Origin: a virus | Length of the DNA stretch: 55,764 nucleotides | Direction: 5' to 3' (one strand) | IMG/VR virus record: IMGVR_UViG_3300033402_000018 | Shown: one piece after another, positions 1,480 through 33,152 of the stretch | How the letters are laid out: each line of letters begins with the position of its first letter | Numbering within the stretch: the stretch's first letter is position 1 | Translations under genes and position numbers: made by a program | The notes under the pieces: model-generated | Told to the model about the DNA's origin: nothing | Database searches by the model: none | The model's input: only the letters and a program-made list of their open reading frames with translations

Positions 1480-2190
1480 ATGGCTTGGTTTGACCAAATC
1501 TCGATGTCGCAAATTAGCCACAGACTGTTTGTCAGTGGTTACGCTCCTGCCGCTGAGTTGGCAAAGGAAAATCCTCATAAAATCACTGCCGTTCTCTGTG
1601 TCCATCAAGTCATGGACTACGACCAGAACCCCAACATCATCTACATGCACGTGCCATTTGACGACGGATCACCCATCCCGCCGCGTCAGTTTGTAAAGTG
1701 CCTTGGTTGGTTGAAGTTCATGTGGGAGAACGGGCACACAATTCTTGTCCATTGCGCCGCTGGCATCTCGCGATCAGTCACGATCATGGCGTCGTTCATG
1801 CACTACGAAGGCATTTGCGATTTTGAAACAGCACTTGACCGAATCCGCATGGCCCGTCCGGTCGCATCTCCTGCCGCAGCCGTATCGAACTCCGCAAAGC
1901 AGATGCTTGGCGTATATCCTTACGATGGCTCAATGGTGCCGGAGCATGAACGCACCATGCACGAACTTATCGAACGCGTGCAGAATCAACGCGCCGCACA
2001 TGCGCACCCGGATGAGAACTGCCCGATGCGCCAGTTTTTACTAGGCGATCAAGAAGACAACAGACCGCGCTACGAAATCCCATGCACCTGCGAGAAGCTG
2101 CTGAATCCAATAGAGTACGCGCAGCAGAAAGAAAAAAATATCATCGTTGTTGCTGATCCCGGCATCATACTAACAGATGACGAGGGGTGA
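1480..2190 (+). CDS. dual-specificity (Cys-based) protein phosphatase
   Basis: P-loop VHCAAGISRS = HCX5R(S/T) signature; 236 aa. Confidence 0.8.
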   Translation: MAWFDQISMSQISHRLFVSGYAPAAELAKENPHKITAVLCVHQVMDYDQNPNIIYMHVPFDDGSPIPPRQFVKCLGWLKFMWENGHTILVHCAAGISRSVTIMASFMHYEGICDFETALDRIRMARPVASPAAAVSNSAKQMLGVYPYDGSMVPEHERTMHELIERVQNQRAAHAHPDENCPMRQFLLGDQEDNRPRYEIPCTCEKLLNPIEYAQQKEKNIIVVADPGIILTDDEG

Positions 2191-2819
2191 GTATGGAGCG
2201 GGTCTTAAACGATGCCTTGGAGCTTGAAGGGATTGCCCAAGGGCACCAAGACGACATCCGTGCCTACCTCAAAATCCTGCGCAACCGGGATCAGTCAACC
2301 TACGAGCATTCCATTCGAGTAGGGATACTCGCCAGTAAGATTGCCATCTATGCCGCCAAGCCGGGGGTTAGCGCACGCATGATGCTGTGGGCTGGCTTCC
2401 TGCATGACATCGGCAAGGTGCTGGTGCCGCCCGGAGTTCTTACTAAGAAATCTCACTTTACCGCTGACGATTACGCCGCGATGGAGCCGCACGTCAAGTA
2501 CGGCTGGGACATGCTCACCGAAGTTCACGATTACACCGCACACATCCTCGTCCGGCATCACCAGTATGGCTCCAAGCCCTACCCTAAAGAACTGCCAGCG
2601 CTGCCGGAGCACCTACAGGCTCGCGCTGAAGTGGTGGACAATGCCGCACGCCTATTGGCGCTCGCGGACTACTACGATGCTCTCATGCACCGGAACAACG
2701 ACAAAAACGGTGCGAAGCCGCTATCCGGCAAAGAGAAGCGGGAAATCTACATGCGGGACAACGCCGATCAGAAAGACCTGATCGAGCTTCTTGAGTCCGT
2801 GGGTGTGCTAAAATTCTAG
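2187..2819 (+). CDS. HD-GYP-family phosphohydrolase with degenerate GYP
   Basis: HSIRVG..LHDIGKVLVP..HHQYGSKPYP..ADYYDAL follows the HD / HDxGK / HHExDGxGYP / DxxDA layout; GTGA overlap with upstream stop. Confidence 0.7.
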   Translation: MSMERVLNDALELEGIAQGHQDDIRAYLKILRNRDQSTYEHSIRVGILASKIAIYAAKPGVSARMMLWAGFLHDIGKVLVPPGVLTKKSHFTADDYAAMEPHVKYGWDMLTEVHDYTAHILVRHHQYGSKPYPKELPALPEHLQARAEVVDNAARLLALADYYDALMHRNNDKNGAKPLSGKEKREIYMRDNADQKDLIELLESVGVLKF

Positions 2820-2826
2820 TAGACTC

Positions 2827-3384
2827 ATGAAAATCAAAGACTTAAAGCTACACGCTTTCTGGAAACGGTTTTTCCGCCGCCTTAGTAGGGGATTGGGCGT
2901 GCCGAAGAAGATTGCAGCGACAGAGGTAAAAGCACCGGGAAAATACGAAGCTGGTAAGCGGTACACCATCTTTCTCGCCGGAGCCATCGACCAAGGTAAA
3001 GCGGTGGACTGGCAGCAGAAAGTCGCCCGCGCTCTGGACGAACTGGACATTCTGATCCTGAATCCGCGCAGAGAGAATTGGGACCCAAGCTGGGATCAAT
3101 CCGCAGACAATCCTGAATTCAGGCAGCAGGTAAATTGGGAACTTGACGCACAGGCGGCCGCTGATATGGTGATTTTCGTGTTCACCAAGGACAGCAAGGC
3201 ACCGATCACGTTCTTGGAATTCGGTCTGTTCGCCCCAACCAAAGACGCCGTGGTCTGCGCTGAAGAAGGCTTCTACCGCAAGGGAAATCTTGACATCGTA
3301 GCTGAGCGCTACCACATTCCAATGTATGACAATTTGGATGAGATGATCGGTGACTTGAAGACGGTGCTTGGGGAGAAAGCATGA
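2827..3384 (+). CDS. nucleoside 2-deoxyribosyltransferase-like protein
   Basis: IFLAGAID..LNPRRENW..WELDAQAAADMVIFVF..PITFLEFG pattern typical of the NDT-like family. Confidence 0.6.
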   Translation: MKIKDLKLHAFWKRFFRRLSRGLGVPKKIAATEVKAPGKYEAGKRYTIFLAGAIDQGKAVDWQQKVARALDELDILILNPRRENWDPSWDQSADNPEFRQQVNWELDAQAAADMVIFVFTKDSKAPITFLEFGLFAPTKDAVVCAEEGFYRKGNLDIVAERYHIPMYDNLDEMIGDLKTVLGEKA

Positions 3385-3716
3385 GCCAGACAGTTTACGT
3401 GCTAACGACCTTGATGGGGGAAAACCCGAAGCTGCCGAAAGAGTGGCGTCCTGTTGGCGTGGTAACAAGCCTCGACATCGCTGAGCAATGGGTCGCGCAC
3501 GGCGGGAACAACGATTGGATTCCGTTTGAGATTGACGATACCAGTTTGACCGGATTAAGCGACAACCCTTCAGTGTTTAAGCCCGCGCCGCCTACGCCGA
3601 ACGAAGAGAAGCTGGAAAAGGCCAACCAGCAATTGCAAGGCGTGATTCAGACGCTTCAGAAGCGACTCGAAAAGAAAAAGCCAAAGGCTTCCCTTTTGAA
3701 CAAGAAACGGAGATAA
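3381..3716 (+). CDS. hypothetical protein
   Basis: 111-aa ORF; ATGA overlap with upstream stop; basic C-terminal tail; no motif. Confidence 0.55.
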   Translation: MSQTVYVLTTLMGENPKLPKEWRPVGVVTSLDIAEQWVAHGGNNDWIPFEIDDTSLTGLSDNPSVFKPAPPTPNEEKLEKANQQLQGVIQTLQKRLEKKKPKASLLNKKRR

Positions 3717-3722
3717 TAGGGT

Positions 3723-4046
3723 ATGGTCACATTGACACCCGGAGCGGTAAAGAAAGTCAAGGAAATCATGGAGCAGCAAGACCCGAAGCCAGCCGCACTG
3801 CGTCTTGGCGTTATTGGCGGCGGATGCTCCGGCTTTCAGTATTCTATGCAGTTCGAGAATGAGAAGGGCATGATGGACAAGTCCTTCGAGTTCGACGGTC
3901 TTACGTTGATCGTTGACGCTACATCGTACATGTATCTCGACGGCTGCGAAGTTGATTACCTTGAGACGCTCGAAGCCAGCGGCTTCAAGTTCAACAACCC
4001 GAACGTGAAAAGCACCTGTGGGTGCGGTCAGAGCTTCAACGCATGA
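3723..4046 (+). CDS. A-type Fe-S cluster carrier (IscA/ErpA/HesB family)
   Basis: GGGCSGFQY and C-terminal CGCGQSF three-Cys signature; 107 aa. Confidence 0.9.
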   Translation: MVTLTPGAVKKVKEIMEQQDPKPAALRLGVIGGGCSGFQYSMQFENEKGMMDKSFEFDGLTLIVDATSYMYLDGCEVDYLETLEASGFKFNNPNVKSTCGCGQSFNA

Positions 4047-4219
4047 GCGAAGAGAATTTTGATTTCGCATTGGACTCATGGACTATCACGCCTGAAGAAG
4101 GCGAAAGAATTGCCCGTGATTTGCAACGACAGTATATCGAAGATCACATTAGGCAGTTCGGGGGCGTCACCCTGCTTTGCCTGCGGCCCAAGAAAGATGA
4201 AACCAATGATGGATTGTAA
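4043..4219 (+). CDS. hypothetical protein
   Basis: ATG 4043 forms ATGA overlap with the IscA-like stop; 58 aa acidic; in frame of ORF 4022..4219. Confidence 0.4.
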   Translation: MSEENFDFALDSWTITPEEGERIARDLQRQYIEDHIRQFGGVTLLCLRPKKDETNDGL

Positions 4220-4552
4220 ACCCAAGCCGAAGAGAGACGGTGGTAAGTCGGAACCGTCTTCGCGGCACGTTCCGCGACGATCCACCGAACTACGACAAGC
4301 CGATCTATGACCGTGATGGTAACCAGATCGGTGTGATTTATGATGCGCCTCCCGCGCCGGGGCCGAGCGGATTATCATGATTTGTTGCTCAATTTGTAAA
4401 GAAATGGTCGTATCTAGTGTTGAAGACCTCCGTTTGAGCGAAACGTTGGTCAGGATACAAGACCACTACAAGACGCATTCTTGGCTGCGACGTAAGCTTC
4501 ACAGGCTACAAACGTTGCCAGCGACATTGCGGCTGAAGAGATTTCAAAAAAC

Positions 4553-4969
4553 ATGTACTCTGAAAAAGTAATCGACCACTACAACAACCCGCGTAATGTT
4601 GGCTCGCTGGACAAAGCATCGCCAGACGTGGGGACAGGTCTGGTTGGTGCGCCGGAGTGCGGCGACGTAATGAAGCTTCAGATCAAGGTGGAAAACAATG
4701 TCATTGTTGACGCTAAGTTCAAAACTTTTGGCTGCGGCAGTGCTATTGCTTCTAGCTCGCTCGCGACTGAATGGGTTAAAGGCAAGACAACTGATGAAGC
4801 CCTCGCCATTAAAAACACCGAGATCGTCAAAGAACTCGCCCTCCCACCTGTAAAGATTCACTGTTCAGTGCTCGCCGAAGACGCGATTCGCGCCGCGATT
4901 GCTGACTGGAAAAAGAAGCAAGATGCCGAAAAAGCCAAAGAAGAAAAAGCCCATCACGAAGCGCGATAA
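4553..4969 (+). CDS. iscU: Fe-S cluster assembly scaffold IscU
   Basis: YSEKVIDHYNNPRNVG..GAPECGDVMKL..FKTFGCGSAIASSS..LPPVKIHCSVLAEDA; canonical Cys/Asp ligand set. Confidence 0.92.
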   Translation: MYSEKVIDHYNNPRNVGSLDKASPDVGTGLVGAPECGDVMKLQIKVENNVIVDAKFKTFGCGSAIASSSLATEWVKGKTTDEALAIKNTEIVKELALPPVKIHCSVLAEDAIRAAIADWKKKQDAEKAKEEKAHHEAR

Positions 4970-5116
4970 CTTCGACCGCAACTACATGCGCCACATTGTG
5001 GAAGAAGAGGAAGAAACGCTGTTCAAACTTCTGCAAGAAGACAAGCCCACCAAATCCTAATTTCTCCAGTATTAAAGCCTTTAGTAGGCGGTATTCCGCC
5101 TTCGAAAGGAACGACT

Positions 5117-5503
5117 ATGTACAAAAGACCCGAAAGAAAGCATAAACCGAACACAGAAAAGTGCCCGTTCTGCGACAAAGATTTCAAACCAATTGATCCG
5201 TGGCGCGAATCACAATGCGTGCTCAACAAGCCGCTCTGGATGGTGATCCCACCCGGCGGCGTCCATCTCGAATGCCCGGTTCACCCCGAGGGACATCATG
5301 TCTTCGGCAGCCCGGTCATCTACATGGATTCTCCTATCCGTGTTCGTGAGAACAACTTACCTGACCCGTTAAACGCGCCGTGGTGCGAGTACGACCGCAC
5401 GAAGTATTCAGGCGGCTGCACCTACGATCACGATTCCAGCAAGGATTTGACGTTCGATTCCACCAAACCCTTCGGAACCACGACAGGCTCGAATTGGCGG
5501 TAA
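5117..5503 (+). CDS. hypothetical protein
   Basis: 128-aa ORF, SD-like AAAGGA upstream, CPFCDK Cys pair; no family recognised. Confidence 0.55.
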   Translation: MYKRPERKHKPNTEKCPFCDKDFKPIDPWRESQCVLNKPLWMVIPPGGVHLECPVHPEGHHVFGSPVIYMDSPIRVRENNLPDPLNAPWCEYDRTKYSGGCTYDHDSSKDLTFDSTKPFGTTTGSNWR

Positions 5504-5524
5504 TCTAGGAAAATTTGGTATTAG

Positions 5525-6106
5525 GTGGGCATGAGTCAATATGATCGTGTCTACCTAGACCAATGCTACGCACTCGCCAAGAACAGCACATGTGTGAAGG
5601 CCAAAGTTGGCGCTCAAGTGCGCGGACCCTACGGCGACATGTCTGACCACCTGCTAGGTCAAGGTTTTAACCAATCCCCCAATCCTGAGTTTGCTGACTG
5701 CGGCAAGCTGTGCGCCGGGGGCATCCGCTGCGGCATTAAGTCCGGTACTCGCGCTGAACTCTGTTACGCCGTCCACGCGGAGCAATACGCACTACTTCAG
5801 GCCGGATCGCTCGCGAAAGGGGCCACGATCTATGTCGCTTCCTACGATGACAAAGGCGAGAAACGCCTGAAGAACGCTGAACTCCCGCTGGGGCACCCGA
5901 TGCACGGTTTCTACTGTTCGGTGTGTGCTAGGCTCATCTGGGCTGCGGGAATCGCACGTGTAGTGACGGACGGTGTAAAGGGCCCGGTTGTTCTCAGCCT
6001 GAATGACATCTGGAAGACCTCTTACGGCGTGGCGGACAGTATTGACAAGAAGTACAAATCCTGCGGTTGCGAAGTAGGCAATTGCATCTGTGATATTGAG
6101 ACCTAA
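5525..6106 (+). CDS. cytidine/deoxycytidylate deaminase-fold protein (divergent)
   Basis: HAEQYALLQ catalytic motif and distal YCSVCARLI CxxC pair; GTG 5525 or ATG 5531 start. Confidence 0.7.
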   Translation: MGMSQYDRVYLDQCYALAKNSTCVKAKVGAQVRGPYGDMSDHLLGQGFNQSPNPEFADCGKLCAGGIRCGIKSGTRAELCYAVHAEQYALLQAGSLAKGATIYVASYDDKGEKRLKNAELPLGHPMHGFYCSVCARLIWAAGIARVVTDGVKGPVVLSLNDIWKTSYGVADSIDKKYKSCGCEVGNCICDIET

Positions 6107-6639
6107 TGTCAAACCTCGCTGAACTCAAAGACCTGCCCAAAGAGCGGAAGAAGTATGTCGTTGGCTTCTTGATTGATCCCACGTTGTCTAAGGTGGTGCT
6201 CGTGCGTAAGAACCGACCTGACTATCAACGCGGTCTGCTCAACGGCGTGGGCGGGAAAGTCGGAGACACGATCCTAGACGAAACCACGGAAGAGGCGATG
6301 GCCCGTGAGTTCCAAGAAGAGACGGGTGGGGTTGATCTCAACTGGCGGCGGTTCTTGCACATGATGACACCCCGGTCAGACCTGACATTTTTCTACGCCA
6401 TCGGCAATGTTCACTGTGTCCGAACACAGACCGACGAAGAAGTAGCGGTGTATGACATTTCCGATGTGATGGATCGCTGCGATACGATGCCCAATGTTCG
6501 CTGGTGCATTCAGATGGCACGCTCTATTGAGTTCGGTGAGCACGCGGATTACTTTGAAGTGGCTGAGATTTTGGAGACAGACTTACCAGCGAATTTTCAT
6601 TTCATCCCGGATGCAGCGCTTGAAAAAGAAGACCTATGA
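6106..6639 (+). CDS. Nudix hydrolase
   Basis: Nudix box GDTILDETTEEAMAREFQEETGG fits GX5EX7REUXEEXGU. Confidence 0.85.
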   Translation: MSNLAELKDLPKERKKYVVGFLIDPTLSKVVLVRKNRPDYQRGLLNGVGGKVGDTILDETTEEAMAREFQEETGGVDLNWRRFLHMMTPRSDLTFFYAIGNVHCVRTQTDEEVAVYDISDVMDRCDTMPNVRWCIQMARSIEFGEHADYFEVAEILETDLPANFHFIPDAALEKEDL

Positions 6640-7574
6640 ACATTGAATCGAAACTGATACTTGCCAGCAAGAGCGAAGCAACAGGCATCACCCTTTACAC
6701 GTTTGTGCTCACGTACCCACGTGTCATCCTAGCTGAAGTAAACACGCATCGAATGCTCAGCCGCAACACCGCGTCATCTCGCGCTATTCCAGCCAAGAAA
6801 CAGCGGGAACGCGTGCTTACTGATCCGTTCGTGCCTGTCACAATTGGGGCGAATCAGAAAGGGATGCAGGCTGGTGAAGAGCTTGACGGCTGGCGTCGGT
6901 TTGTTGCGATCAACACGTGGAAACTTGCACGCTACCCAATGGTAGCGGCGTCGTGGGTACTCGACAAGGTTGGTGCGCACAAGCAAGTTGTGAACCGCAT
7001 TGTGGAGCCGTGGACGTTCACGCAGCAAGTTGTGACTTGCACCGACCTGAAGAATGTCTTCAAACTGCGCAACCACAAAGATGCAGAGCCACACTTTCAA
7101 ATCATCGCGAAACAGATGCAGATGCAAGCAGAGTGGGCCGAGAAATGGTTTAACACCCTTTCGTGGAACTCGGAGAACGCGCTTGACCGTAGATTAGAAA
7201 TCAACAACCAACTTGGTGTTGGTACTCTTCAGGTGCTAAAGCCGGGGGAGTGGCACATGCCGTTTGTTGATGAGAAGGACATCACAGACACAATCCTGAA
7301 CTCCATGCTGCATGACAGCACTGACGAATCCCTGAAGAAAATCAGCACAGCACGCTGCGCACGTGTCAGCTACTTTCTACCGGAGAGCGGCAAAAGGTCT
7401 GACCCTAAGCGTGACGTAGAGCTTTGCAATAAACTGTCCGGCTCCGGTCATTGGAGTCCGTTCGAGCACGTAGCCACGCCGACAAAAGAAGCGGATTACA
7501 TTGGCAATTTTAAGGGCTGGAAGCAGTATCGTAAAGAGTATCCGCAAGAGTCTGGAGGGGACCGTGGGAATTGA
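6636..7574 (+). CDS. thyX: flavin-dependent thymidylate synthase ThyX
   Basis: ThyX motif NTHRMLSRNTASSRA (RHRxxSxxxxSxR); 312 aa; ATGA overlap with Nudix stop. Confidence 0.92.
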   Translation: MNIESKLILASKSEATGITLYTFVLTYPRVILAEVNTHRMLSRNTASSRAIPAKKQRERVLTDPFVPVTIGANQKGMQAGEELDGWRRFVAINTWKLARYPMVAASWVLDKVGAHKQVVNRIVEPWTFTQQVVTCTDLKNVFKLRNHKDAEPHFQIIAKQMQMQAEWAEKWFNTLSWNSENALDRRLEINNQLGVGTLQVLKPGEWHMPFVDEKDITDTILNSMLHDSTDESLKKISTARCARVSYFLPESGKRSDPKRDVELCNKLSGSGHWSPFEHVATPTKEADYIGNFKGWKQYRKEYPQESGGDRGN

Positions 7575-7608
7575 AGGCTGGGGCAGATCATTTGGGGCGA
7601 TTCAAGCG

Positions 7609-8094
7609 ATGGAGAAACGCCTTGCGAAGCAGCGCGAGTGGGACATCTACTACCTGAACATGGCCCGTTACGTCTCCACGAAGTCGAAGGACCCAAGCAC
7701 GCAAACCGGAGCGTGCATCGTGCGCCCGGACAACTCTTTGTGTTCCATTGGCTTCAACGGCTTCCCCAAAGGCATGAATGACGCCCCGGAGCTTTACGCC
7801 AACCGTGATGTAAAGTATTCTCGCACAGTGCATTGCGAAGTCAATGCCGAAATCTTCACCAGAGAAGACCTGAAGGGGTTTACGCTTTACACGTGGCCTT
7901 TCTCATCTTGCGACCGTTGCGCGGTGACGATGATTCAGGCGGGAATTGCACGTTTTGTGTTTCCAACCATGCCGCCAGAGAAGGCGTCCCGTTGGGCTGA
8001 AAACATGGCGATAGCGCAAGGCTACATGCGGGAAGCTGGGCGGGAAGTGGTTGAGATACCGTATGAACAGATTCCCAAGGTTGTGCTAGAATAA
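7609..8094 (+). CDS. dCMP deaminase
   Basis: YYLNMA..SKDPSTQTGACIV..VHCEVNAE..SCDRCAVTMIQAGI (HxE + CxxC); start ambiguous (7501, GTG 7564 or ATG 7609). Confidence 0.85.
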   Translation: MEKRLAKQREWDIYYLNMARYVSTKSKDPSTQTGACIVRPDNSLCSIGFNGFPKGMNDAPELYANRDVKYSRTVHCEVNAEIFTREDLKGFTLYTWPFSSCDRCAVTMIQAGIARFVFPTMPPEKASRWAENMAIAQGYMREAGREVVEIPYEQIPKVVLE

Positions 8095-10130: not shown

Positions 10131-10515
10131 ATGAACGCTAACGAATACCAGACGCTCGCTGAAGTTACCGAGAGCAAAGATTTTGAAGCAATCGGTAAAC
10201 GCATGTCAACCATCCGTAGCATCCGTCTTCTCCACGCGACAACTTGGCATTTCCAGCGAATGCGGTGAAGTCGCTGACGCACTCAAGAAGCATATCTTCT
10301 ACGGCAAGGAACTGGACGTAGTAAACGTTGCCGAAGAGATCGGCGATATTTGCTGGTATCTGGCGCTCGCTTGCAATGAGCTTGGTATGGCATTCGAGCA
10401 GGACATCTTGGAAGTCAACATCGCCAAGCTGAAGGCCCGTTACGGGGACAAGTTCTCCGAGCACGCGGCCATGCACCGTGACCTCAACAAGGAACGTGCT
10501 ATACTCGAAGGATGA
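10131..10515 (+). pseudogene. MazG-like all-alpha NTP pyrophosphohydrolase interrupted by a +1 frame change
   Basis: N-terminal helix MNANEYQTLAEVTES..IRLLHAT in frame of ORF 9960..10268. The core LGISSECGEVADALKKHIFYGKELD..EEIGDICWYLA..NIAKLKARYGDKF is in frame of ORF 10183..10515. Frames meet near ACAACTT (~10246). The second frame has only a TTG start. Confidence 0.6.
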
Positions 10516-12351: not shown

Positions 12352-13185
12352 ATGGCGAACAAACCCAGAACCGACTCGCTGGGTGACAGAATGAAGCGCT
12401 ACGAAGCAACCACGCGCTTCCTGTTGCCGCGCCGCACTTACACAATTCTTCGCGTTGATGGTCGTGCGTTCCACACGTGGACTCGCGGGCTTGACCGTCC
12501 CTATGACCGCAACTTCATGGCGTGCATGAACGAAGCCGCGCTCGAACTTTGCCAGCAGATCGCGGGAGCGCAGTTCGCTTACGTGCAGTCCGACGAAATC
12601 AGCCTGTTGGCTGTGGACTTCCTTGACATCAAAACCGAGCCGTGGTTTGAAGGCGGCGTGCAGAAATGGGCCAGCGTCGGCGCATCCATCGCAACGATGG
12701 CGTTCAACAATTGCTTGCTTCGGCTGAAGGGGGCAAACCTCGACGAGTCTGAGCTTAAGATCACCAAGAAGCTCCCGAACGCCACGTTCGACGCCCGCGT
12801 GTTCACCATCCCAGACTTGGTGGAAGTGGAAAATTATTTCGTGTGGCGGCAGCAGGATGCGGAACGCAACTCCGTCACAATGCTGGCGCAGAGCTACGCT
12901 TCCCACAAGCAACTCATGGGGAAAAATCGCGCCGCGCAGCATGAGATCATCCACAAAGCCGGGGACAATTGGGCGAAGCATCCTGTGCGTTTCAAGCATG
13001 GCGCTGTGATCCGCCGTGCCGCTGAAAACGAAGTCTGGACGGAAGTCGGCACCCATCATTTCAACTGGGTTGTGGACGAAGACACCCCAGCCTTCACCAA
13101 AGACCGCGCTTACATCCGTGGTCTGGTTCCTGTTGTTTGGGACAACGACCTTCTGGTCAGAAAGGCGGCAGCGAATGGAGAATAG
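12352..13185 (+). CDS. Thg1-like tRNA-His guanylyltransferase / 3'-5' RNA polymerase
   Basis: GDRMKRYE..LRVDGRAFHTWTRGL..AYVQSDEISLL..FDARVFTIP..NYFVWRQQDAERNS matches Thg1 hallmarks (RxDGxxFH, SDE, FDxR, WRQxD). Confidence 0.88.
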   Translation: MANKPRTDSLGDRMKRYEATTRFLLPRRTYTILRVDGRAFHTWTRGLDRPYDRNFMACMNEAALELCQQIAGAQFAYVQSDEISLLAVDFLDIKTEPWFEGGVQKWASVGASIATMAFNNCLLRLKGANLDESELKITKKLPNATFDARVFTIPDLVEVENYFVWRQQDAERNSVTMLAQSYASHKQLMGKNRAAQHEIIHKAGDNWAKHPVRFKHGAVIRRAAENEVWTEVGTHHFNWVVDEDTPAFTKDRAYIRGLVPVVWDNDLLVRKAAANGE

Positions 13186-15830: not shown

Positions 15831-16373
15831 ATGGCGCAGGACGTTAATTTCAAGAAAACCGCAGCAACAGAGACGCAGTACAACACAGGCGCACAGCGGG
15901 ACAATCGAGTAGGTAAAGGGGCGTTTCACTGGATGCCGTGGGACGCCCTGTTTTGTGTCTCCCGCATCTATGAGCTTGGCAACAAAGGCCGGAGCAAAAC
16001 CGGAGACGGCAACGACCGTAATTGGGAAAACGGGATGCCGCTCATTGACCTGTTGCAGAGCGCGATCAATCACATCTCAGCCCACATCTCAGGCGACCGC
16101 AGCGAGCCGCACATCTCACAGGCAATCTGGAACCTATTGAACTACCTTCAGACTTCGATCTGGGTTATCCTAGGGTTCCGCCCCAAGGAACTCAACAAGC
16201 TGCCAGACCATCGCCATGCTTGGAAGCCGGGGGATGAGCCGCCATGCCCGTTGTCACCACAAGAGATTGAGTGGTTACAGTTCAAGGGTGTGATCCCAAA
16301 AGAGCCAGAGTTGCATGATTGCGGGCCTGAACCAGCCGTTCTTAAGGTGGTATTGCCCGGATCGGAACGCTGA
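15831..16373 (+). CDS. DUF5664-like (dATP/dGTP diphosphohydrolase N-terminal domain family) protein
   Basis: TGAQRDNRVGKGAFHWMPWDAL..NWENGMPLIDLLQSAINHI..PHISQAIWNLLNYLQ matches the GAxRDxxxGK..NWxxG..H..WN pattern recalled for this phage family. Confidence 0.55.
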   Translation: MAQDVNFKKTAATETQYNTGAQRDNRVGKGAFHWMPWDALFCVSRIYELGNKGRSKTGDGNDRNWENGMPLIDLLQSAINHISAHISGDRSEPHISQAIWNLLNYLQTSIWVILGFRPKELNKLPDHRHAWKPGDEPPCPLSPQEIEWLQFKGVIPKEPELHDCGPEPAVLKVVLPGSER

Positions 16374-16416: not shown

Positions 16417-19125
16417 ATGCCCTCCCTTCTTCACAAGCTGAGCTTCTTTGACCCCGAGGTCGGACGCTACTTCGTCGTAGCGAGCGACGGTTTTTACTGG
16501 AAAGAAGCCAAAAAATCACCTGAAGACTCCAAGGTTACAAAGCTGCTGGCTCAATACGGCTGGCAACTCCGAAACGGCAATGACGTGTGGTTGATCTTTA
16601 GACGCCCACGGACGCCGGGGGAGTTGTTCGTAATTCGTGGGGAGAAACGCTGGTATTATGATCTCCCAGATTCCGACCTGTTTGACGTAGCGGCGGAGGG
16701 TAGGGGTCTCGACAGCCTTCAACAGGCAATCGAGAGCGGTAAGCTGCCGGGAGCAAAAGCCAAGGGAATGACCGCCAGCCCCACCACAACGGCCGTCAAT
16801 AACGCCGGAAATGGTCACGGCTCCATGCCGGACGACCAGCTTGAACCAGATACCAAGTACGGCATGATGGGCCGACCGGACTACGGTTCCGGGTACACCG
16901 GAATCATGAACGAGTTGAATGCTGAAGATGATGAATGGAGCAAGGAAGCGTCCATTCTGGTTCTGAACGGCAGCGTAAAGATGGGTTCCACGACAGCGGA
17001 AACCTCGCTCTACGTCACAGGAGCGGAGTATCAAGGCTTGACGCTCACCAAGTTTACCTTCAGCCCTGACCGTCACAAGGCAAAGATTTTCCCAAAGCTT
17101 ACCGCGCAGAATCTCAGTCAACAGATTTTCGGTAAGTTCGCCACGGTTGCTCGTGTCGTGCTCGCCGCCGACTATCGCGAGATGTTTAAGGCTACCCTTG
17201 CGCTCGATCCCAAGTACGATAAAGTAATCAACCGTGAAATTGAGTGGGCTAAGCGCGTCCTCAAGAAGCAGGATCGCATCGTATGGTATCTCCGTTGGGT
17301 TCGTTTGGCTTGCGTGCATGACATGCTTGGCAGGGCGCATCTGGACGAGAACCCGGCTGGCGTTACGGCGGCTGCGGCTGCTCCCGCCCCGGCCCCAAAT
17401 CAGCCCCAGCAGCCCGCGCAGCAACAAAAGAAGCCGCAGACACGCACAGAGCAGATCAAAGCGTTGTACCAGCAGTACGACCGCGAGATGACGAATAAGA
17501 GCGGCGGCGGTGAACTTGTCACGCTGACTGACTTGGTTCACATGAAGCAGAGCCTTGAACACTTCTACTCACTGCACTCGCCAGAGATTGACAACTATAG
17601 CCCCAAGTACGAAAGCTGGAATGATCTCTACGGAAAATTCTCCGTGTTCGAGCAGGCTTGGAAGGAAGAAGCCGGGAAAGCACTCAAACCCAAAGAGGGT
17701 GATGAGATTTGGATTCAGTTCCCGGACGGCTGGGCGTGGTGGCATTTGCCACGCGCATCATGCGAAGACGAAGCTGCGGCGATGGGTCACTGCGGAAACT
17801 CACCTAATGCCAAAGCCAAGGGTGTTTCAATTCTCAGTTTGCGTAGACCGATCAAACGCGGCAATGAGACTCGCTGGGAGCCGCATCTAACTTTCATCCT
17901 GCACGGCACTGTGCTGGGCGAGATGAAAGGTAAGGGAAACGACAAGCCAGCGCCACAGTACCACAAGTACATCATCCCTTTGCTGCTGGATAAACGTATC
18001 ACTGGGGTTGGCGGCGGCGGTTATCTCGCAGAGCACAACTTTTCAATGAACGATTTGACGCCGGAACAACGCGCAGAAATCTCCAAGGCGAAGCCATCAA
18101 TGGGTATGAGCCTAAGCGGTTACTATAAAGCCTACGGCATGGACGATACATTAGCCGCCAGAATCAAGGCGATCCTTGGCATGGACTCGGCAACTTATGA
18201 TCCACAGTGGGGTTTTGCCCTGCGTTCGTGGGATACGCGTGAAGATTTCCTCGATGATGTGGGTGATTCCGAAGCATCGAAGGCCGCCACGTTCGTCCAG
18301 ACCGGGGAGCATGACTACGATGACCCAGACATTGACGAGTTGACCGACCTACTGGACGGCTTTGATGAAGTGGAACTGCATAACCTAGGGTTGCAGTTGC
18401 AGTACGATTATCCACGCGAGATGCGTGAGTGGTACGCGAACTTCAATCCAAATGATCGTGACGCGCTTAAGATGGCGCTTACGGACCTGTACAACGCGTA
18501 CATCAAGGGAGCCAAAGCACAGCATTCAAACCAGCGCAAAGGCTTGGAAAAGAAGATCAAAGAACTGGAAGCCAATGTGTCTGAAGACCCGGCGGCAGCG
18601 AACGAAGTTACTCCGCTGAAAGAGAAGCTGAAGAATTTGCGTCTCGATAAAGTCTGGGAGAAAGTTCCAGCACTGCTTGAATTGTATTCTGCTTATTTGT
18701 CAGGCGGGCCCGATCAAAACACAGTGGATAAACTACTGCGTGAAGCGCTCGAACGTGGCGTGGACGAGAGCGGGACTGAGATTCGTCGTACCAAGGACGG
18801 CAAGTGGCTGCAACTTTTGAGCGAAGAACAGGCAGTTGCCGACGCCGAAGCCGCGCAGAATCGTCACGGCACCGGAGGCTACTATGAGGCCCCGGAAATT
18901 AACGTGAGCATTCCGTATGATTGGGATGAGTTCGATGAAGAACGCGCAAGGGAATCCGCGAAGGAATATTTCAGTCGTCCGCCGAAGCGCCCGGAAGTTG
19001 ATAAGCGGCAGCGCCGTTTGTTCCCGGAACCAAAGACGGAAGAGTCCGCAAAGCGGCACGGAATCACCGTTTCCCATGCAAAGAACCCGCTTCTGCGCCG
19101 CAAGTCGTTAAAAACAAAGGTGTAG
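16417..19125 (+). CDS. large hypothetical protein (902 aa)
   Basis: longest ORF in the window. Low-complexity linker AAAAAPAPAPNQPQQPAQQQKKPQ. Segment EDEAAAMGHCGNS..GVSILSLRRP..LGEMKGKGNDKP is reminiscent of PcfJ-like domains (tentative). Confidence 0.75.
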   Translation: MPSLLHKLSFFDPEVGRYFVVASDGFYWKEAKKSPEDSKVTKLLAQYGWQLRNGNDVWLIFRRPRTPGELFVIRGEKRWYYDLPDSDLFDVAAEGRGLDSLQQAIESGKLPGAKAKGMTASPTTTAVNNAGNGHGSMPDDQLEPDTKYGMMGRPDYGSGYTGIMNELNAEDDEWSKEASILVLNGSVKMGSTTAETSLYVTGAEYQGLTLTKFTFSPDRHKAKIFPKLTAQNLSQQIFGKFATVARVVLAADYREMFKATLALDPKYDKVINREIEWAKRVLKKQDRIVWYLRWVRLACVHDMLGRAHLDENPAGVTAAAAAPAPAPNQPQQPAQQQKKPQTRTEQIKALYQQYDREMTNKSGGGELVTLTDLVHMKQSLEHFYSLHSPEIDNYSPKYESWNDLYGKFSVFEQAWKEEAGKALKPKEGDEIWIQFPDGWAWWHLPRASCEDEAAAMGHCGNSPNAKAKGVSILSLRRPIKRGNETRWEPHLTFILHGTVLGEMKGKGNDKPAPQYHKYIIPLLLDKRITGVGGGGYLAEHNFSMNDLTPEQRAEISKAKPSMGMSLSGYYKAYGMDDTLAARIKAILGMDSATYDPQWGFALRSWDTREDFLDDVGDSEASKAATFVQTGEHDYDDPDIDELTDLLDGFDEVELHNLGLQLQYDYPREMREWYANFNPNDRDALKMALTDLYNAYIKGAKAQHSNQRKGLEKKIKELEANVSEDPAAANEVTPLKEKLKNLRLDKVWEKVPALLELYSAYLSGGPDQNTVDKLLREALERGVDESGTEIRRTKDGKWLQLLSEEQAVADAEAAQNRHGTGGYYEAPEINVSIPYDWDEFDEERARESAKEYFSRPPKRPEVDKRQRRLFPEPKTEESAKRHGITVSHAKNPLLRRKSLKTKV

Positions 19126-19854: not shown

Positions 19855-21417
19855 ATGATGACACCGCAGGAAGAACGAATTCTCAACGCGGCACGCCAAA
19901 AGATCGAAGAGCAGCAGGAATTGCTCAGACGCCTGACCGCCCCAGCCTACCACCTTGGGATCGTCTGCGGTGTGTATCCGAAGACCGTGGTTGTGGACAC
20001 AGGTTCCCAACTCTTTGAGCTTGACCGCATCGAAGGCGGACCAGACATCAAGGTTGGTCAGGGCGTTGACATTCATCCGCAGACCGGGCAGATCGCCAAA
20101 GTTTCAGACTTCGTTTCCTACGGAAGCACCGGGACGGTATCGCAGATCGACGGCAACATCATCCAGATCAGTGTTCCGTCCGGCCTCATCACCACCGAAT
20201 ATTCGCTCATCCCGGTAAGCATCGGCGACAAGATCGTGATGAACAGCACGAACCACGTCATCATGAAGAAGCTGCCGACCGCGTCGAAGTATGCCTTCAA
20301 GACGAGCGCCGTGCTGGACTGGAAAGACATCGGCGCTTGCGAAGACGCGAAAAAAGAACTTATCGCCGCGCTCGAAACGCCTTACACCGCATCGCCGCTG
20401 TTCAAATTCTTCAACAAGGATCAGATCAAAGGCGCACTACTTTGGGGACGCCCCGGCAACGGCAAGACTTTGCTTGGACGAGCCGCCGCTGGCGCACTGG
20501 CGCGTATGCACGGCGTGGAAGCTAGGGACTCAGGCTTTATCTACATCAAGGGGCCAGAAATCCTTGACAAGTACGTTGGCGAAACTGAATCTCAGATTCG
20601 CGAAGCTTTCGCCTATGCCAAAGCGCACTTCAAGAAACACGGCTATCCGGCTGTCATGTTCGTGGACGAAGCGGACGCCGTAATGATGCGCCGTGGTTCG
20701 CGCACCGCATCCGGCATGGAAATGACCATCGTCCCGCAGTTCCTTTCTGAGATGGACGGCATCGAAGACAGCGGCGTGTTCGTGCTGCTGGCTACCAACC
20801 GTGCGGATACGCTCGATCCGGCAATCATTCGTCCCGGTCGCTGCGACCGCCGCGTCCATGTGGCACCACCCAACAAGCTCAACGCCCCGGAGATTTGGGA
20901 CATTCACATGCGCAAAGTGCCTGTAACTAACGGCGTGAGCAAAGAACAGTTGATCCAGAGCGTGAATGACACGCTGTTCAGCGAGCAATTTCCGCTCTAT
21001 TTGATTGACACGCCCAACGGACGCAAGACGTTCAGCCTTGGGAATCTTGTGTCAGGCGCTATGATCGCGGGAGCCGTGGAACGGGCATCAGCCATTGGCA
21101 TTGACCGTAATCTCATGGCCCTGTGCGGCACAACTCAGCCGACGCAGGATCAGCTTGCAAAGGTTGACCCAAAGAAATTTGACGGTCTCTCGCAAGGGGA
21201 CTTCACCGCCGCGCTTGCCGCCATGCACAAAGAGCAGTACGGCATGAACCATTTCGATGAACTGCGTGAGTTTATCGACATGCAGAAGCTCGAAGTCACG
21301 TCCATTGAGCAATGCCACGATGGGCAAAAGATCGAACGCCCGAAGCCGCAGCCGCGCAAGGAACCAGAGATCATCGGTGTTATTCCAATGCCGACAGGGA
21401 AGAAGTTCGACGCATAA
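19855..21417 (+). CDS. Mpa/ARC-type (proteasome-associated-like) AAA+ unfoldase
   Basis: N-terminal coiled coil (EERILNAARQKIEEQQELLRRL) plus OB-like segment. Walker A GRPGNGKT, Walker B VMFVDEAD. IKGPEILDKYVGETESQIR..TIVPQFLSEMDG..ATNRADTLDPAIIRPGRCDR closely parallels Mpa IKGPELLNKFVGETERHIR..VVPQLLSEIDG..ASNREDMIDPAILRPGRLD. Confidence 0.85.
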   Translation: MMTPQEERILNAARQKIEEQQELLRRLTAPAYHLGIVCGVYPKTVVVDTGSQLFELDRIEGGPDIKVGQGVDIHPQTGQIAKVSDFVSYGSTGTVSQIDGNIIQISVPSGLITTEYSLIPVSIGDKIVMNSTNHVIMKKLPTASKYAFKTSAVLDWKDIGACEDAKKELIAALETPYTASPLFKFFNKDQIKGALLWGRPGNGKTLLGRAAAGALARMHGVEARDSGFIYIKGPEILDKYVGETESQIREAFAYAKAHFKKHGYPAVMFVDEADAVMMRRGSRTASGMEMTIVPQFLSEMDGIEDSGVFVLLATNRADTLDPAIIRPGRCDRRVHVAPPNKLNAPEIWDIHMRKVPVTNGVSKEQLIQSVNDTLFSEQFPLYLIDTPNGRKTFSLGNLVSGAMIAGAVERASAIGIDRNLMALCGTTQPTQDQLAKVDPKKFDGLSQGDFTAALAAMHKEQYGMNHFDELREFIDMQKLEVTSIEQCHDGQKIERPKPQPRKEPEIIGVIPMPTGKKFDA

Positions 21418-29405: not shown

Positions 29406-29621
29406 ATGAGACCGAAACCAGCAGACGTTGAATTGAAGATCGCTGAGAGTGTCGGCTGGTACATTGACGTAACTAACGAAGAGAAGTGGCTGGTGCGTGA
29501 CGGCGGCGTGAATCAATGGGTCGGCCCCGGCGCAGCTACGGACGCGGAACTGAAATTGTGGGTTCTGCTGCTGACCAAGATTGTGACGAAAGAAGCCAAG
29601 GAATTTTTGGAGAGCCTGTAA
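29406..29621 (+). CDS. hypothetical protein
   Basis: 71-aa ORF right after terminator and GCATCTAAG motif. Confidence 0.5.
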   Translation: MRPKPADVELKIAESVGWYIDVTNEEKWLVRDGGVNQWVGPGAATDAELKLWVLLLTKIVTKEAKEFLESL

Positions 29622-30406
29622 TGAGTGAGTTCATTTCCGCTTACACACCGAACAAACCCACCAAGGTATCCACGGTCAAGATGCTGATCGCTAGCTATGC
29701 CGCGTTCTTCTTCGTGTTCTGGTTCTTCTCGCCGTTCCCGTTCCTGCCTTCAATCGGTGAAACATGGGCAGCGTGGGTTGAGCAGTGGGGGCAAGGCTTA
29801 GGCGGGGAACTCATTACTAGCTTCGAAGCCAACTTGCAAGCTATCGCTCTTTCTTCTCTCATCTCGCTGGGACTTGCCTATTTGACAGTGCTCGCCGGAT
29901 TCCGTCCAATCGTCACGTTCCTGTCCAAGCTACGCTTCCTTTCAATGGTCGGCTTGAGCTTTTTCTTCACGGTTGCCACGAAGACACAGCACCAACTCAA
30001 GATCAGCTTGTTGGTGTTCAGCATCAGTGTGTTCTTCGTGACCGGGATGGCTGACGTGATCGAGTCAATTCCGAAAGAACAGTATGATCTTGCACGCACG
30101 CTGCGCATGGGGCCGTGGCGCACCGTCTGGGAAGTAGTAGTGCTGGGTCAAATTGACAAGGCGTTTGATGTGCTGCGCCAGAACGCCGCCATCGGATGGA
30201 TGATGCTTACGATGATTGAAAGCATGGTTCGTTCCGAAGGCGGCATTGGCGCTATGCTCACCACCGCGAACAAACACTTTTACCTTAACGCAGTCTTTGC
30301 CATCCAGATCACCATTCTGTTGATGGGGTTGGGGCAGGACTACTTGATCGGCGCATCGAAGAAGCTCTTCTGTCCGTATGCCGCGCTGGGATCGGAGCGC
30401 AAGTGA
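29621..30406 (+). CDS. ABC transporter permease (NitT/TauT-type binding-protein-dependent family)
   Basis: ATG 29621 (TAATG). About 6 TM helices. EAA-like loop ESIPKEQYDLARTLRMGPWRTVWEVVVLGQI. Confidence 0.8.
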   Translation: MSEFISAYTPNKPTKVSTVKMLIASYAAFFFVFWFFSPFPFLPSIGETWAAWVEQWGQGLGGELITSFEANLQAIALSSLISLGLAYLTVLAGFRPIVTFLSKLRFLSMVGLSFFFTVATKTQHQLKISLLVFSISVFFVTGMADVIESIPKEQYDLARTLRMGPWRTVWEVVVLGQIDKAFDVLRQNAAIGWMMLTMIESMVRSEGGIGAMLTTANKHFYLNAVFAIQITILLMGLGQDYLIGASKKLFCPYAALGSERK

Positions 30407-30798
30407 AGAACCTTGAAGGATACGCGCTGATAGCGCTCGTGCTGTTCACATTGTTCACATTGTTCACCATTGGCTGCGGAAGCACGCCTCCTGTATGGAC
30501 AGCCTATACTGCGGAAGCTGTGTACCTGAACGAACCCGGCTCCGTGTCAATTCTGATGCGTAACGAAGATAACAGTCTTTCGGTGAAAAAGTTTTATGTC
30601 AGTACCGATGCACTGATTATCAAAGACGACATCGTTGATTCCCGCGCACATCCATGGGTGAGTGTTGAGCAAGAGAGTGAGATGGGCGACTTGGTGACTA
30701 CCAAAATCACAGTCCACGTTCACAGCATCAAAGAAATCCAGCCCGGACACTGGAACCACGGAAAGTTCGGACAGGGACAAGATCAGCAGATAGAATAG
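30403..30798 (+). CDS. putative lipoprotein
   Basis: GTGA overlap; signal with LFTLFTLFTIGCGS lipobox-like Cys; 9-bp TGTTCACAT x3 repeat at 30443-30469 encodes LFT repeats. Confidence 0.55.
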   Translation: MKNLEGYALIALVLFTLFTLFTIGCGSTPPVWTAYTAEAVYLNEPGSVSILMRNEDNSLSVKKFYVSTDALIIKDDIVDSRAHPWVSVEQESEMGDLVTTKITVHVHSIKEIQPGHWNHGKFGQGQDQQIE

Positions 30799-30807
30799 GG
30801 GAAGACA

Positions 30808-31263
30808 ATGGGCTTCATATTTGGGATAGTGGTTGGGATTTGCCTTGCGGCGCTTATAGGGCATTGCTGGCAGGAAGACGGCTGTGACCACACATGGAAA
30901 GTCACCGCTGCGCATCAGATGATGCTCGTACACACCATCCACGGCGTTACCATTGGGGAGCCGGATGATGGGCAACCAGTCACCGAAGTGCTTTCTCGCT
31001 GCACCGTCTGCGGGGAAACGGTCACCGAAGAACTCTCAGGTCACTGGACTTACGAGCAGCTATCCGGTGAGCCGGATGCGTCCGGGGAAAACACAACTTT
31101 TTGGCGAACGGCGAAAAAGCCGGAGCCGGAGCAAACCGATATTTTTTGGCGAACGGCGAAAAAGCCGGAGCCGGAGCAAACCGATGATCGAAGTGGGACA
31201 GGAAGTGACGCGCTGGCTGGCGGGGACAATCCCGATGCAGCTAAAAGTGACAGCGGTAACTGA
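30808..31263 (+). CDS. hypothetical membrane-anchored protein with 15-aa tandem repeat
   Basis: N-terminal TM; FWRTAKKPEPEQTD(I) x2. Confidence 0.5.
   Translation: MGFIFGIVVGICLAALIGHCWQEDGCDHTWKVTAAHQMMLVHTIHGVTIGEPDDGQPVTEVLSRCTVCGETVTEELSGHWTYEQLSGEPDASGENTTFWRTAKKPEPEQTDIFWRTAKKPEPEQTDDRSGTGSDALAGGDNPDAAKSDSGN
31098..31185 (+). repeat. perfect 43-nt direct repeat at 45-nt period
   Basis: TTTTTGGCGAACGGCGAAAAAGCCGGAGCCGGAGCAAACCGAT at 31098-31140 and 31143-31185. Confidence 0.9.
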
Positions 31264-31447
31264 AGACCGAATCATCTGCGGCGACTACGAGTTCGACAAA
31301 CGGACTGGCGCTGAGATTGATGACTTCATGGGATTCGGGCCGGACTTCACAGGCAGCTACATCAAGGTTCCCGGCGTGAACTATGTTCAGGCTTCTGATG
31401 AAGAAGCACTGGCACGTCTCGAACAAATCGGCAAGAAAGGCGAATGA
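31184..31447 (+). CDS. hypothetical protein
   Basis: ATG 31184 at the end of the repeat, frame of ORF 30953..31447; 87 aa globular-looking; overlaps previous gene tail by 80 nt. Confidence 0.45.
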   Translation: MIEVGQEVTRWLAGTIPMQLKVTAVTEDRIICGDYEFDKRTGAEIDDFMGFGPDFTGSYIKVPGVNYVQASDEEALARLEQIGKKGE

Positions 31448-31448
31448 T

Positions 31449-31622
31449 ATGAATGCCGCGATCAAAGAAGTTATCGAGAAGCACGTCTGGGCGTATGGGC
31501 CTAACCGCAAAGGCTGCGTTATGTTCATGACGGATGGCGTCAGGGAAGTAGCCAACGAACTTGAAATCAGCTATCGGGCGGCGGAAGAGCTTGTCCGATG
31601 CTGGATTGGGGAGACATTCTAA
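31449..31622 (+). CDS. hypothetical protein
   Basis: ATG 31449, 57 aa, frame of ORF 31383..31622. Confidence 0.4.
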   Translation: MNAAIKEVIEKHVWAYGPNRKGCVMFMTDGVREVANELEISYRAAEELVRCWIGETF

Positions 31623-32497
31623 TGGCGGCACTTTATCCATACACCTACGGGCCTACGCTTCTTAAAATCGACAACGTTTGCCTATCGGCGTCGTCTGACG
31701 GTCTGCGGTTGCTCGAACACGAAGAACCGGGGAGCCGCCCCATTCTGAAGAACGTGAGCGCCGAAATCAAGAAGATCGACCGTGTTGGATACGTTAACGG
31801 TCAGATCGTAGGATTCATCGGCCCGTCTGGTATCGGCAAAACACAGCTTTTCCGCATCATTGCCGGACTCAACAAGCCAACATCAGGTTCCGTCACGATC
31901 AATGGCGGCAAAGTGGTGCAGGCAGGTGAAGTAGGCGTCGTGGCGCAGAATTACCCGCTCTTTGCGCATCGCACGGTCATGAGTAACCTCATGCTCGCCG
32001 CCAAACAGAAAGAGAAAGACCCCAAAGTAGCGCATGACAAAATCATGACGTTCTTGAACGAATTCAAGCTGGCGGACAAGGCCCCATTGTATCCGGCGCA
32101 GTTATCAGGTGGGCAGAAGCAGCGCATCGCCATCATTCAGCAAATCCTGTGCTCAGAGCATTTCCTGCTCATGGATGAGCCTTTCTCCGGCTTGGACATC
32201 ATCGTAGAAGGCAAATGCACTGAGTTGATCTTGAAGGTTGCCAACATGGACGGCTTGAACACCGTGATCGTAGTCACGCATGACATTTCAGCCGCCGCAG
32301 CCATCGCCGATCACATCTGGGCATTGGGGCGTGAGCATGATGCTGAAGGCAACCCGCTCCCCGGCGCGAGTATTGTGAAGACCTACGACCTGATAAACGA
32401 AGGTCTGTGCTGGACACAGTTGGGTGAACACGCGATGGTTCAACCAAACATGGTTGAGTTCATCCGCCAAGTCAAGGAAGATTTCTACAAGTTCTAA
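31622..32497 (+). CDS. ABC transporter ATP-binding protein (NitT/TauT-like)
   Basis: Walker A GPSGIGKT, signature LSGGQKQR, Walker B LLMDEPFSGLD, H-loop VVTHD; TAATG junction. Confidence 0.88.
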   Translation: MAALYPYTYGPTLLKIDNVCLSASSDGLRLLEHEEPGSRPILKNVSAEIKKIDRVGYVNGQIVGFIGPSGIGKTQLFRIIAGLNKPTSGSVTINGGKVVQAGEVGVVAQNYPLFAHRTVMSNLMLAAKQKEKDPKVAHDKIMTFLNEFKLADKAPLYPAQLSGGQKQRIAIIQQILCSEHFLLMDEPFSGLDIIVEGKCTELILKVANMDGLNTVIVVTHDISAAAAIADHIWALGREHDAEGNPLPGASIVKTYDLINEGLCWTQLGEHAMVQPNMVEFIRQVKEDFYKF

Positions 32498-32891: not shown

Positions 32892-33152
32892 ATGGCATAC
32901 GTCATTGCAGAGCCGTGTATCGGCGTCAAAGACACAGCATGTGTCGATGCGTGTCCAGTGGATTGCATTCACCCCAAAAAAGGCACACCTGAGTTCGAGA
33001 AAGAGCCGCAGCTTTACATTGATCCCGTAGAGTGCATCGACTGCGGCGCTTGCGTCCCGGTTTGCCCAACGGCCGCAATTTTCCCGGTGGACGATTTGCC
33101 CGAACAGTGGAAGAAATTCACCGAGATCAACGCCAAGTATTTTGGAAGGTAA
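32892..33152 (+). CDS. ferredoxin (7Fe-type, 3Fe-4S + 4Fe-4S)
   Basis: MAYVIAEPCIGVKDTACVDACPVDCIHP and CIDCGACVPVCPTAAIF cluster motifs; 86 aa. Confidence 0.9.
   Translation: MAYVIAEPCIGVKDTACVDACPVDCIHPKKGTPEFEKEPQLYIDPVECIDCGACVPVCPTAAIFPVDDLPEQWKKFTEINAKYFGR

Follow-up and report, generated by a model that had tools for sequence, protein, structure and literature searches.

The DNA analyzed here is a stretch of 55,764 nucleotides (the window) from IMG/VR virus record IMGVR_UViG_3300033402_000018, in which genes for an A-type iron-sulfur (Fe-S) cluster carrier and for the Fe-S scaffold IscU lie close together on the plus strand and together cover 1,247 bp. The original prediction for this locus, made from the sequence without database searches, had proposed an IscA/ErpA-type carrier at position 3723, a near-canonical IscU, and a 7Fe ferredoxin at 32892 to 33152. 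The carrier open reading frame (ORF; 3723 to 4046, plus strand) encodes a protein of 107 amino acids (aa) that matched PF01521 with an E value of 8.8e-22 in a Pfam profile search and scored 126.6 bits against TIGR00049, above the cutoff of 58.8. Its ligand triad, C-X63-C-X-C, was complete, with Cys35 located in the sequence GGGCSGFQY and Cys99 and Cys101 in STCGCGQSF. The top-scoring equivalog was ErpA (NF010147; 112.4 bits, cutoff 117), and the cutoffs for the IscA equivalog TIGR02011 (96.6 bits versus 150.6) and the SufA equivalog TIGR01997 (92.1 bits versus 136.2) were likewise not reached. The top solved-structure match was HI1723 of Haemophilus influenzae (PDB 2APN; 92.7 bits), a type I A-type carrier of the ErpA family, with Escherichia coli IscA and SufA ranking behind, and the signatures GGGCSGFQY and STCGCG are common to ErpA and the window carrier. 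The carrier was also 47% identical to a reference sequence for E. coli ErpA. Since ErpA was both the best equivalog and the best PDB match, yet the equivalog cutoff was missed, "ErpA-like" was considered a fair label.

The second ORF (4553 to 4969, plus strand; 138 aa) scored 216.3 bits against the IscU equivalog TIGR01999 (cutoff 192.4) and matched PF01592 (NifU_N) with an E value of 8e-53. It aligned to human ISCU with an E value of 5.7e-64 and to E. coli IscU structures at approximately 200 bits. In these alignments Cys36, Asp38, Cys62, His104, and Cys105 coincided with the ligand residues of the human and E. coli proteins (C37, D39, C63, H105, and C106 in E. coli), and the HscA-docking motif LPPVK was present at residues 98 to 102. 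Relative to 118 close homologues, the unusual features were confined to three residues (L19, V52, and T80), a charged C-terminal tail, and a loop deletion of two residues that was itself found in 29 of the 118. Judged by family score, ligands, and docking motif, the ORF encodes a canonical IscU.

The third gene (32892 to 33152, plus strand), approximately 29 kb from the carrier-IscU module, encodes an FdxA-like ferredoxin of 86 aa and of the 7Fe type, i.e., with one [3Fe-4S] and one [4Fe-4S] cluster. The assignment was based on the cysteine pattern, C9-X7-C17-X3-C21P ... C48-X2-C51-X2-C54-X3-C58P, all cysteines of which align with those of the top solved relatives, the 7Fe ferredoxins 1H98 (Thermus), 1BC6 (Bacillus schlegelii), and 2V2K (Mycobacterium smegmatis), at E values of 6e-25 to 1e-23. 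The NCBIfam FdxA equivalog cutoffs were missed (FdxA_Actino, 100 bits versus 125; FdxA_Protbact, 71.3 bits versus 135). In the two closest relatives of this phage, viral contigs of 463 kb and 102 kb, the ferredoxin was 91% conserved and was located at roughly equal distance from the module. Three unrelated IMG/VR contigs (L012, 10001 to 11092; L013, 5652 to 6689; L041, 10001 to 11049) carry the order IscU-Fdx-carrier with an FdxA-type ferredoxin in the middle that is 39 to 43% identical to that of the window, and in two others (L032 and L055) a ferredoxin directly follows IscU and the locus ends before any carrier. An FdxA-type ferredoxin beside IscU in five unrelated viral contigs supports a functional tie of this ferredoxin type to the viral module.

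All three gene assignments of the original prediction were thus borne out: for the carrier and IscU in coordinates, plus strand, profile scores, ligands, and LPPVK, and for the ferredoxin in its cysteine pattern and solved 7Fe homologues. Loss of the conserved ligands on careful alignment had been named, beside a lack of complementation, as a result that would speak against the proposal, and all of them are retained in both the scaffold and the carrier.

It had further been stated that the usual partners IscS and HscBA are not encoded in the window, and tblastn and Pfam agreed on this point. The tblastn queries were the eight proteins of the iscR-iscS-iscU-iscA-hscB-hscA-fdx-iscX operon of the Acidobacteria metagenome-assembled genome (MAG) GCA_016196065.1, and they matched the window only at IscU and the carrier; no IscR, IscS, HscB, HscA, [2Fe-2S] Fdx, or IscX was obtained. 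Pfam searches of the larger ORFs in the window revealed no desulfurase, chaperone, radical S-adenosylmethionine (SAM) enzyme, or other recognizable Fe-S enzyme except the ferredoxin, and the readable flanks beyond the window ends (approximately 5 kb and 8 kb) contained no Fe-S genes. A cysteine desulfurase scan of IMG/VR found 54 loci, none of them on related phage contigs, which is a weak negative given the limited sensitivity of two patterns built from a two-sequence alignment. An earlier IscS scan started from a single host protein gave uninformative patterns and one match.

The source habitat of the DNA is soil or peat, and the window is most plausibly a section of a huge-phage genome. The identical IscU was found on eight metagenome contigs, the longest of 128 kb, and the full genome is at least this size and perhaps approximately 460 kb. 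In the 463-kb (L087; IMGVR_UViG_3300033405_000001) and 102-kb IMG/VR viral contigs, the block dual-specificity phosphatase-HD-nucleoside 2-deoxyribosyltransferase-orf111-carrier-IscU-orf128-ThyX is syntenic with the window, and a separate 458-kb assembly carries the same carrier family. Nearly all genes of the window are short, share one strand, and lack a known family, and no cellular housekeeping genes were seen among them. An ORF at 50013 to 52460 (plus strand) encodes an 815-aa protein resembling the major vault protein (MVP; MVP_shoulder, E value of 3.3e-26; Vault_3, E value of 5.5e-11), and this protein is 41 to 44% identical over 98 to 99% of its length to proteins of the huge phages LR756500 (462 kb) and LR756501/LR756503 (735 kb). 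A shell protein of vault type is in this way conserved among huge phages. Other window proteins match Salicola phage SCTP-2 (440 kb) and jumbo Xanthomonas and Erwinia phages. Because a nucleotide search of deposited phages matched the IscU gene alone (69 to 71% identity), the phage has no close cultured relative. The earlier claim that the module is phage encoded is supported, although not proven, by the syntenic viral contigs of up to 463 kb and by the matches of window proteins to published huge and jumbo phages.

Both Fe-S genes are nearest to Acidobacteriota genes, which provides a lead to the host. The phage IscU shared 90 to 93% identity with its homologues in Terriglobales, Sulfotelmatobacter, and other Acidobacteria, including 91% with the isc-operon IscU of GCA_016196065.1. 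The carrier was 44% identical to the Acidobacteria operon IscA and 66% identical to a stand-alone ErpA-like carrier of Acidobacteriota. Its 80 closest cellular relatives (61 to 69% identity) were mostly from Acidobacteriota MAGs (Terriglobia, Bryobacterales, and Acidoferrales), a few being labelled as other phyla, and longer metagenomic proteins, one of them named Acidobacteriota, reached 75 to 79%. The most likely host is accordingly a member of the Acidobacteriota (Terriglobia), a lineage in which every ISC (iron-sulfur cluster) partner exists, as one such genome has the full eight-gene operon. Neither IscU nor IscS was found within 4 kb of the carrier paralogue in any of the 80 cellular loci. 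Since the paralogue stands alone in all of them, the phage module was deduced to have been assembled from two unlinked host genes; its order, carrier then IscU, is also the reverse of the host iscU-iscA.

Synonymous sites were saturated (proportion of synonymous differences, pS, of at least 0.75) both among phage copies and between phage and host copies, while the nonsynonymous divergence (dN) in the same kinds of pairs was approximately 0.1 for IscU and 0.1 to 0.4 for the carrier. The ratio of dN to synonymous divergence was not computable for most pairs because of this saturation, and only the qualitative conclusion was used, namely, that low dN at saturated synonymous sites places the genes under selection. 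The GC content at third codon positions (GC3) tracks each phage genome (0.54 for the window IscU and 0.41 for that of L088, compared to 0.755 for the host), and the ligand residues were retained in every related phage copy. By these measures the module genes are long resident and selected rather than recent passengers. Each phage IscU copy resembled the host protein more closely than it did its counterparts in other phages; the identities are therefore uninformative as to single or multiple acquisition, and synteny was used instead.

Viral IscU genes are common. A pattern scan of IMG/VR gave at least 598 IscU matches, and among the matches listed, 598 of 600 stretches encode an IscU relative. 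Of 125 loci fetched, five were metagenome copies of this same phage, and IscU and a carrier were both present in 84. The possibility that these "viral" loci are misfiled host isc operons was rejected, as no IscS, IscR, HscB, [2Fe-2S] Fdx, or IscX was found near IscU in the approximately 120 IMG/VR loci. Seven viral loci (L064, 7435 to 7611, and six others from IMG/VR) have a Cys-rich ORF of 58 aa (CISVC..C.GCGR) between IscU and the carrier. The window IscU and carrier matched phrog_8429 (E value of 1.2e-40) and phrog_17776 (E value of 3.8e-33), respectively, and PHROGs already counts the IscU family among the auxiliary metabolic genes.

IscU and A-type carrier genes of viruses have been described and interpreted as an aid to Fe-S proteins of the virus or the host (PMC5332604, PMC9038755, PMC7678222), among them those of the environmental viral genomes of Nishimura et al. 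2017 (PMC5332604) and of HMO-2011-type phages (PMC9038755). Like the window, the marine cases have a host-derived scaffold and/or carrier, often adjacent, without IscS or HscBA. The module studied here has the same defining features, since it is on a viral contig, host derived, and without a core desulfurase, although the window itself has no virion gene; it belongs to a class of viral helper genes that is already on record, a point not made in the original prediction, and viral IscU and carrier genes without IscS are common. Most of the published cases come from marine T4-like, pelagiphage, or HMO-2011-type viruses with genes of gammaproteobacterial type, whereas the window represents a huge-phage lineage with Acidobacteriota-derived genes and differs further in its order, carrier then IscU, and in the co-conserved 7Fe ferredoxin. 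Compared to the bacterial ISC operon of GCA_016196065.1, the window IscU has the same ligands and LPPVK, but IscU is the only gene in common; the carrier is an unlinked ErpA-like paralogue, and the other six genes are missing. The huge phages of Al-Shayeb et al. 2020 (LR756500, LR756501, and LR756503) share the full-length MVP-like gene with the window but no similarity at the nucleotide level. A-type carriers are encoded by the huge phages LR756511 and LR756504, and no IscU was found in the LR7565xx huge-phage records at E values below 1e-5.

Taken together, the region is probably an auxiliary module for Fe-S biogenesis that a very large phage obtained from its host, most likely a member of the Acidobacteriota (Terriglobia). 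The original prediction suggested that host Fe-S assembly is boosted or rewired by the phage; this is how such auxiliary genes are usually read, and the suggestion is consistent with the retained ligands and LPPVK, the purifying selection, and the ferredoxin synteny. The phage would add IscU scaffold and ErpA-type carrier capacity to the host ISC pathway. Since no sulfur donor or chaperones are encoded, it would have to use the IscS, [2Fe-2S] Fdx, and HscB/HscA of the host. From these genes we infer a partnership with host proteins, a direction of cluster flow, and a set of recipients, as follows. Clusters would be assembled on the phage IscU with sulfur from host IscS, host Fdx also taking part in loading, and would be released by host HscBA acting through the retained LPPVK. 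The phage carrier would then receive them and insert them into apo-proteins, including the phage 7Fe ferredoxin; the other recipients are probably host or phage enzymes that a long infection requires. With both genes in a phage transcription unit, Fe-S supply would no longer depend on host isc expression.

Several observations count against this interpretation. The carrier, which falls narrowly under the ErpA cutoff, is not formally an ErpA equivalog. Besides the ferredoxin, no Fe-S client was recognized by Pfam among the larger ORFs of the 55.8-kb window. The related contig L090 has kept the carrier without an IscU within 10 kb, and the carrier-IscU pair is therefore not obligatory. No structural phage gene (capsid, terminase, or tail) was found in the window or its readable flanks, and for this reason the viral origin rests on the relatives and the gene content.

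A more elaborate arrangement was also considered, in which the phage would possess its own partial Fe-S supply line made from unlinked host parts (the ErpA-type carrier, IscU, and the 7Fe ferredoxin, possibly with orf111 and orf128, which flank the pair, as new accessory factors). Free of host IscR control, this line would feed Fe-S or radical SAM enzymes, so far unseen, that the phage would encode at other places in its approximately 460-kb genome, and the ferredoxin would donate the electrons for assembly in place of the ISC [2Fe-2S] Fdx. The last role is hinted at by the occurrence of IscU-Fdx-carrier modules in other viruses; as a whole, we regard the arrangement as rather doubtful. It is similarly unlikely that the two proteins act as a stress or repair buffer, mainly holding or re-inserting clusters so that, during infection in acidic peat, respiratory and central-metabolic Fe-S enzymes of the host are shielded against oxidative or iron stress, instead of serving phage clients. 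Carriers of the ErpA type supply essential aerobic enzymes with clusters (E. coli ErpA and IspG/H), and the single phage-encoded client in the window would suit such a role. The co-conservation of the ferredoxin in the same phages and the IscU-Fdx-carrier modules elsewhere, however, point to at least one viral client. The sequence data do not separate this buffer from the auxiliary module preferred here.

Competition among IscS acceptors is established E. coli biochemistry, and the phage encodes a client of IscS and HscA but neither enzyme, with an IscU that is almost identical to the host protein outside its C-terminal tail. An excess of phage IscU might accordingly occupy host IscS or HscA as a decoy, diverting sulfur from tRNA thiolation, thiamine, and the molybdenum cofactor or disturbing Fe-S homeostasis and IscR signalling, and would not raise the net number of clusters. 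A decoy needs no ligands, yet the five IscU ligand residues are invariant across the phage copies despite the saturated synonymous divergence, and productive assembly fits better with an IscU that is paired with a carrier and co-conserved with an Fe-S client; this explanation was judged improbable. Still less credence was given to the view that the DNA is not from a phage at all but from a cellular genome or from a large extrachromosomal element, such as a megaplasmid, with extra ISC genes. The lack of virion genes noted above and the existence of misfiled contigs in IMG/VR would allow it, but the short unidirectional genes without families, the tRNA cluster, and the nucleotide-metabolism genes are typical of large phages, and the MVP-like match to LR756500, LR756501, and LR756503, the matches to SCTP-2 and to jumbo Xanthomonas and Erwinia phages, and the lack of housekeeping genes make it very improbable. 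That the genes are passengers, captured recently and neutrally from host DNA with no role in infection, would agree with the very high amino acid identity of IscU to the host. This was already disfavored and has hardly any likelihood left, as synonymous sites are saturated between phage and host and among phages, GC3 has drifted to the composition of each phage, and two unlinked host loci have been joined in a syntenic block that is kept in several divergent phages.

Viral helper genes of this class are known mainly from marine viromes; the locus, as an auxiliary module, adds huge phages of Acidobacteriota, a phylum that is dominant in soil and peat and has received little study, and it offers a case in which a viral module was built from two separate host loci rather than lifted as a piece of an operon. 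The general understanding of Fe-S biogenesis or of phage auxiliary metabolism is unchanged; some interest attaches to the Acidobacteriota link, to the setting in a huge phage, to the two-locus assembly, and to the co-conserved 7Fe ferredoxin.

The genes and spacer around the pair were also compared among relatives. A small conserved ORF (4043 to 4219, plus strand; 58 aa) overlaps the carrier stop codon. It was called as a gene on all five of the metagenome contigs and has a 49% identical counterpart in L087, with no match in Pfam, NCBIfam, or PHROG. The remaining spacer up to IscU (4220 to 4552) is variable and contains doubtful small ORFs. Carrier and IscU are separated by approximately 20 nt in L088 and L007, and different small ORFs are inserted between them in the window and in L087. 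Scans for promoters and terminators around the pair gave no signals above chance, and an Rfam search of the same region gave no match.

Directly upstream of the carrier is orf111 (3381 to 3716, plus strand; 111 aa), a lineage-specific gene with a family of 17 members, all on contigs of this phage clade; it is immediately 5' of the carrier in L087, L088, and L090. Its invariant residues are E21, R23, P24, W37, D45-W46-I47, and D52-D53, and it has no cysteines. No family match was found, and an AlphaFold2 (AF2) model with a predicted local distance difference test (pLDDT) score of 74.8 gave nothing below an E value of 0.5 in a Foldseek search of the PDB. Downstream of IscU is orf128 (5117 to 5503, plus strand; 128 aa), a Cys/His-rich gene conserved after the module in L087 and L090 at 45 to 46% identity with the Cys and His positions kept. 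The pattern, CPFC ... QC ... ECPVHPEGHH, makes a metal protein possible. Searches of Pfam, NCBIfam, and PHROG gave no family match, and the single-sequence AF2 model was unusable (pLDDT of 34).

Elsewhere in the window, plus-strand genes at 1480 to 8094, 10183 to 10515, and 15831 to 16373 form a nucleotide-metabolism set consisting of a dual-specificity phosphatase, an HD protein, a nucleoside 2-deoxyribosyltransferase-like protein, two dCMP-deaminase-like proteins, NUDIX, ThyX, and MazG. This set, which includes a domain resembling the dATP/dGTP diphosphohydrolase N-terminal domain (PF18909; E value of 6.6e-8), suggests a pathway for modified-base DNA. The tRNA cluster (35639 to 36514) comprises five genes, four for Ser isoacceptors (GCT, CGA, GGA, and TGA) and one for Leu-TAA; the tRNA-Leu gene is overlapped by a minus-strand ORF (36278 to 36514) with an HNH-like motif (DHRDGDRKNN..CPNCH). 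Genes for RNA repair or maturation, a Thg1-like tRNA-His guanylyltransferase and an RlaP nucleotidyltransferase, are located at 12352 to 13185 and 52726 to 53562 (plus strand). The window also contains an NAD ligase gene, for whose product an exact-protein look-up found no identical protein on record. Just past the window end, an ORF at 16523 to 16990 of L209 encodes a 155-aa product with HisRS-like class II tRNA-synthetase domains (PF13393 and PF00587).

Parts of an ATP-binding cassette (ABC) transporter are encoded at 29516 to 32497 (plus strand), namely, a permease (BPD_transp_1, with weak NtrB/SaoP-like matches) and an ATPase, with two ORFs of unknown function between them. An Fe or S importer tied to the module was considered here, and no such link is claimed, as all family matches were far below their cutoffs and the substrate is unassignable. 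An AAA+ ATPase (19855 to 21417, plus strand) resembles the bacterial proteasome ATPase Mpa/ARC, scoring 229 bits against TIGR03689 (cutoff 505), and similar genes are annotated in Brevundimonas phages.

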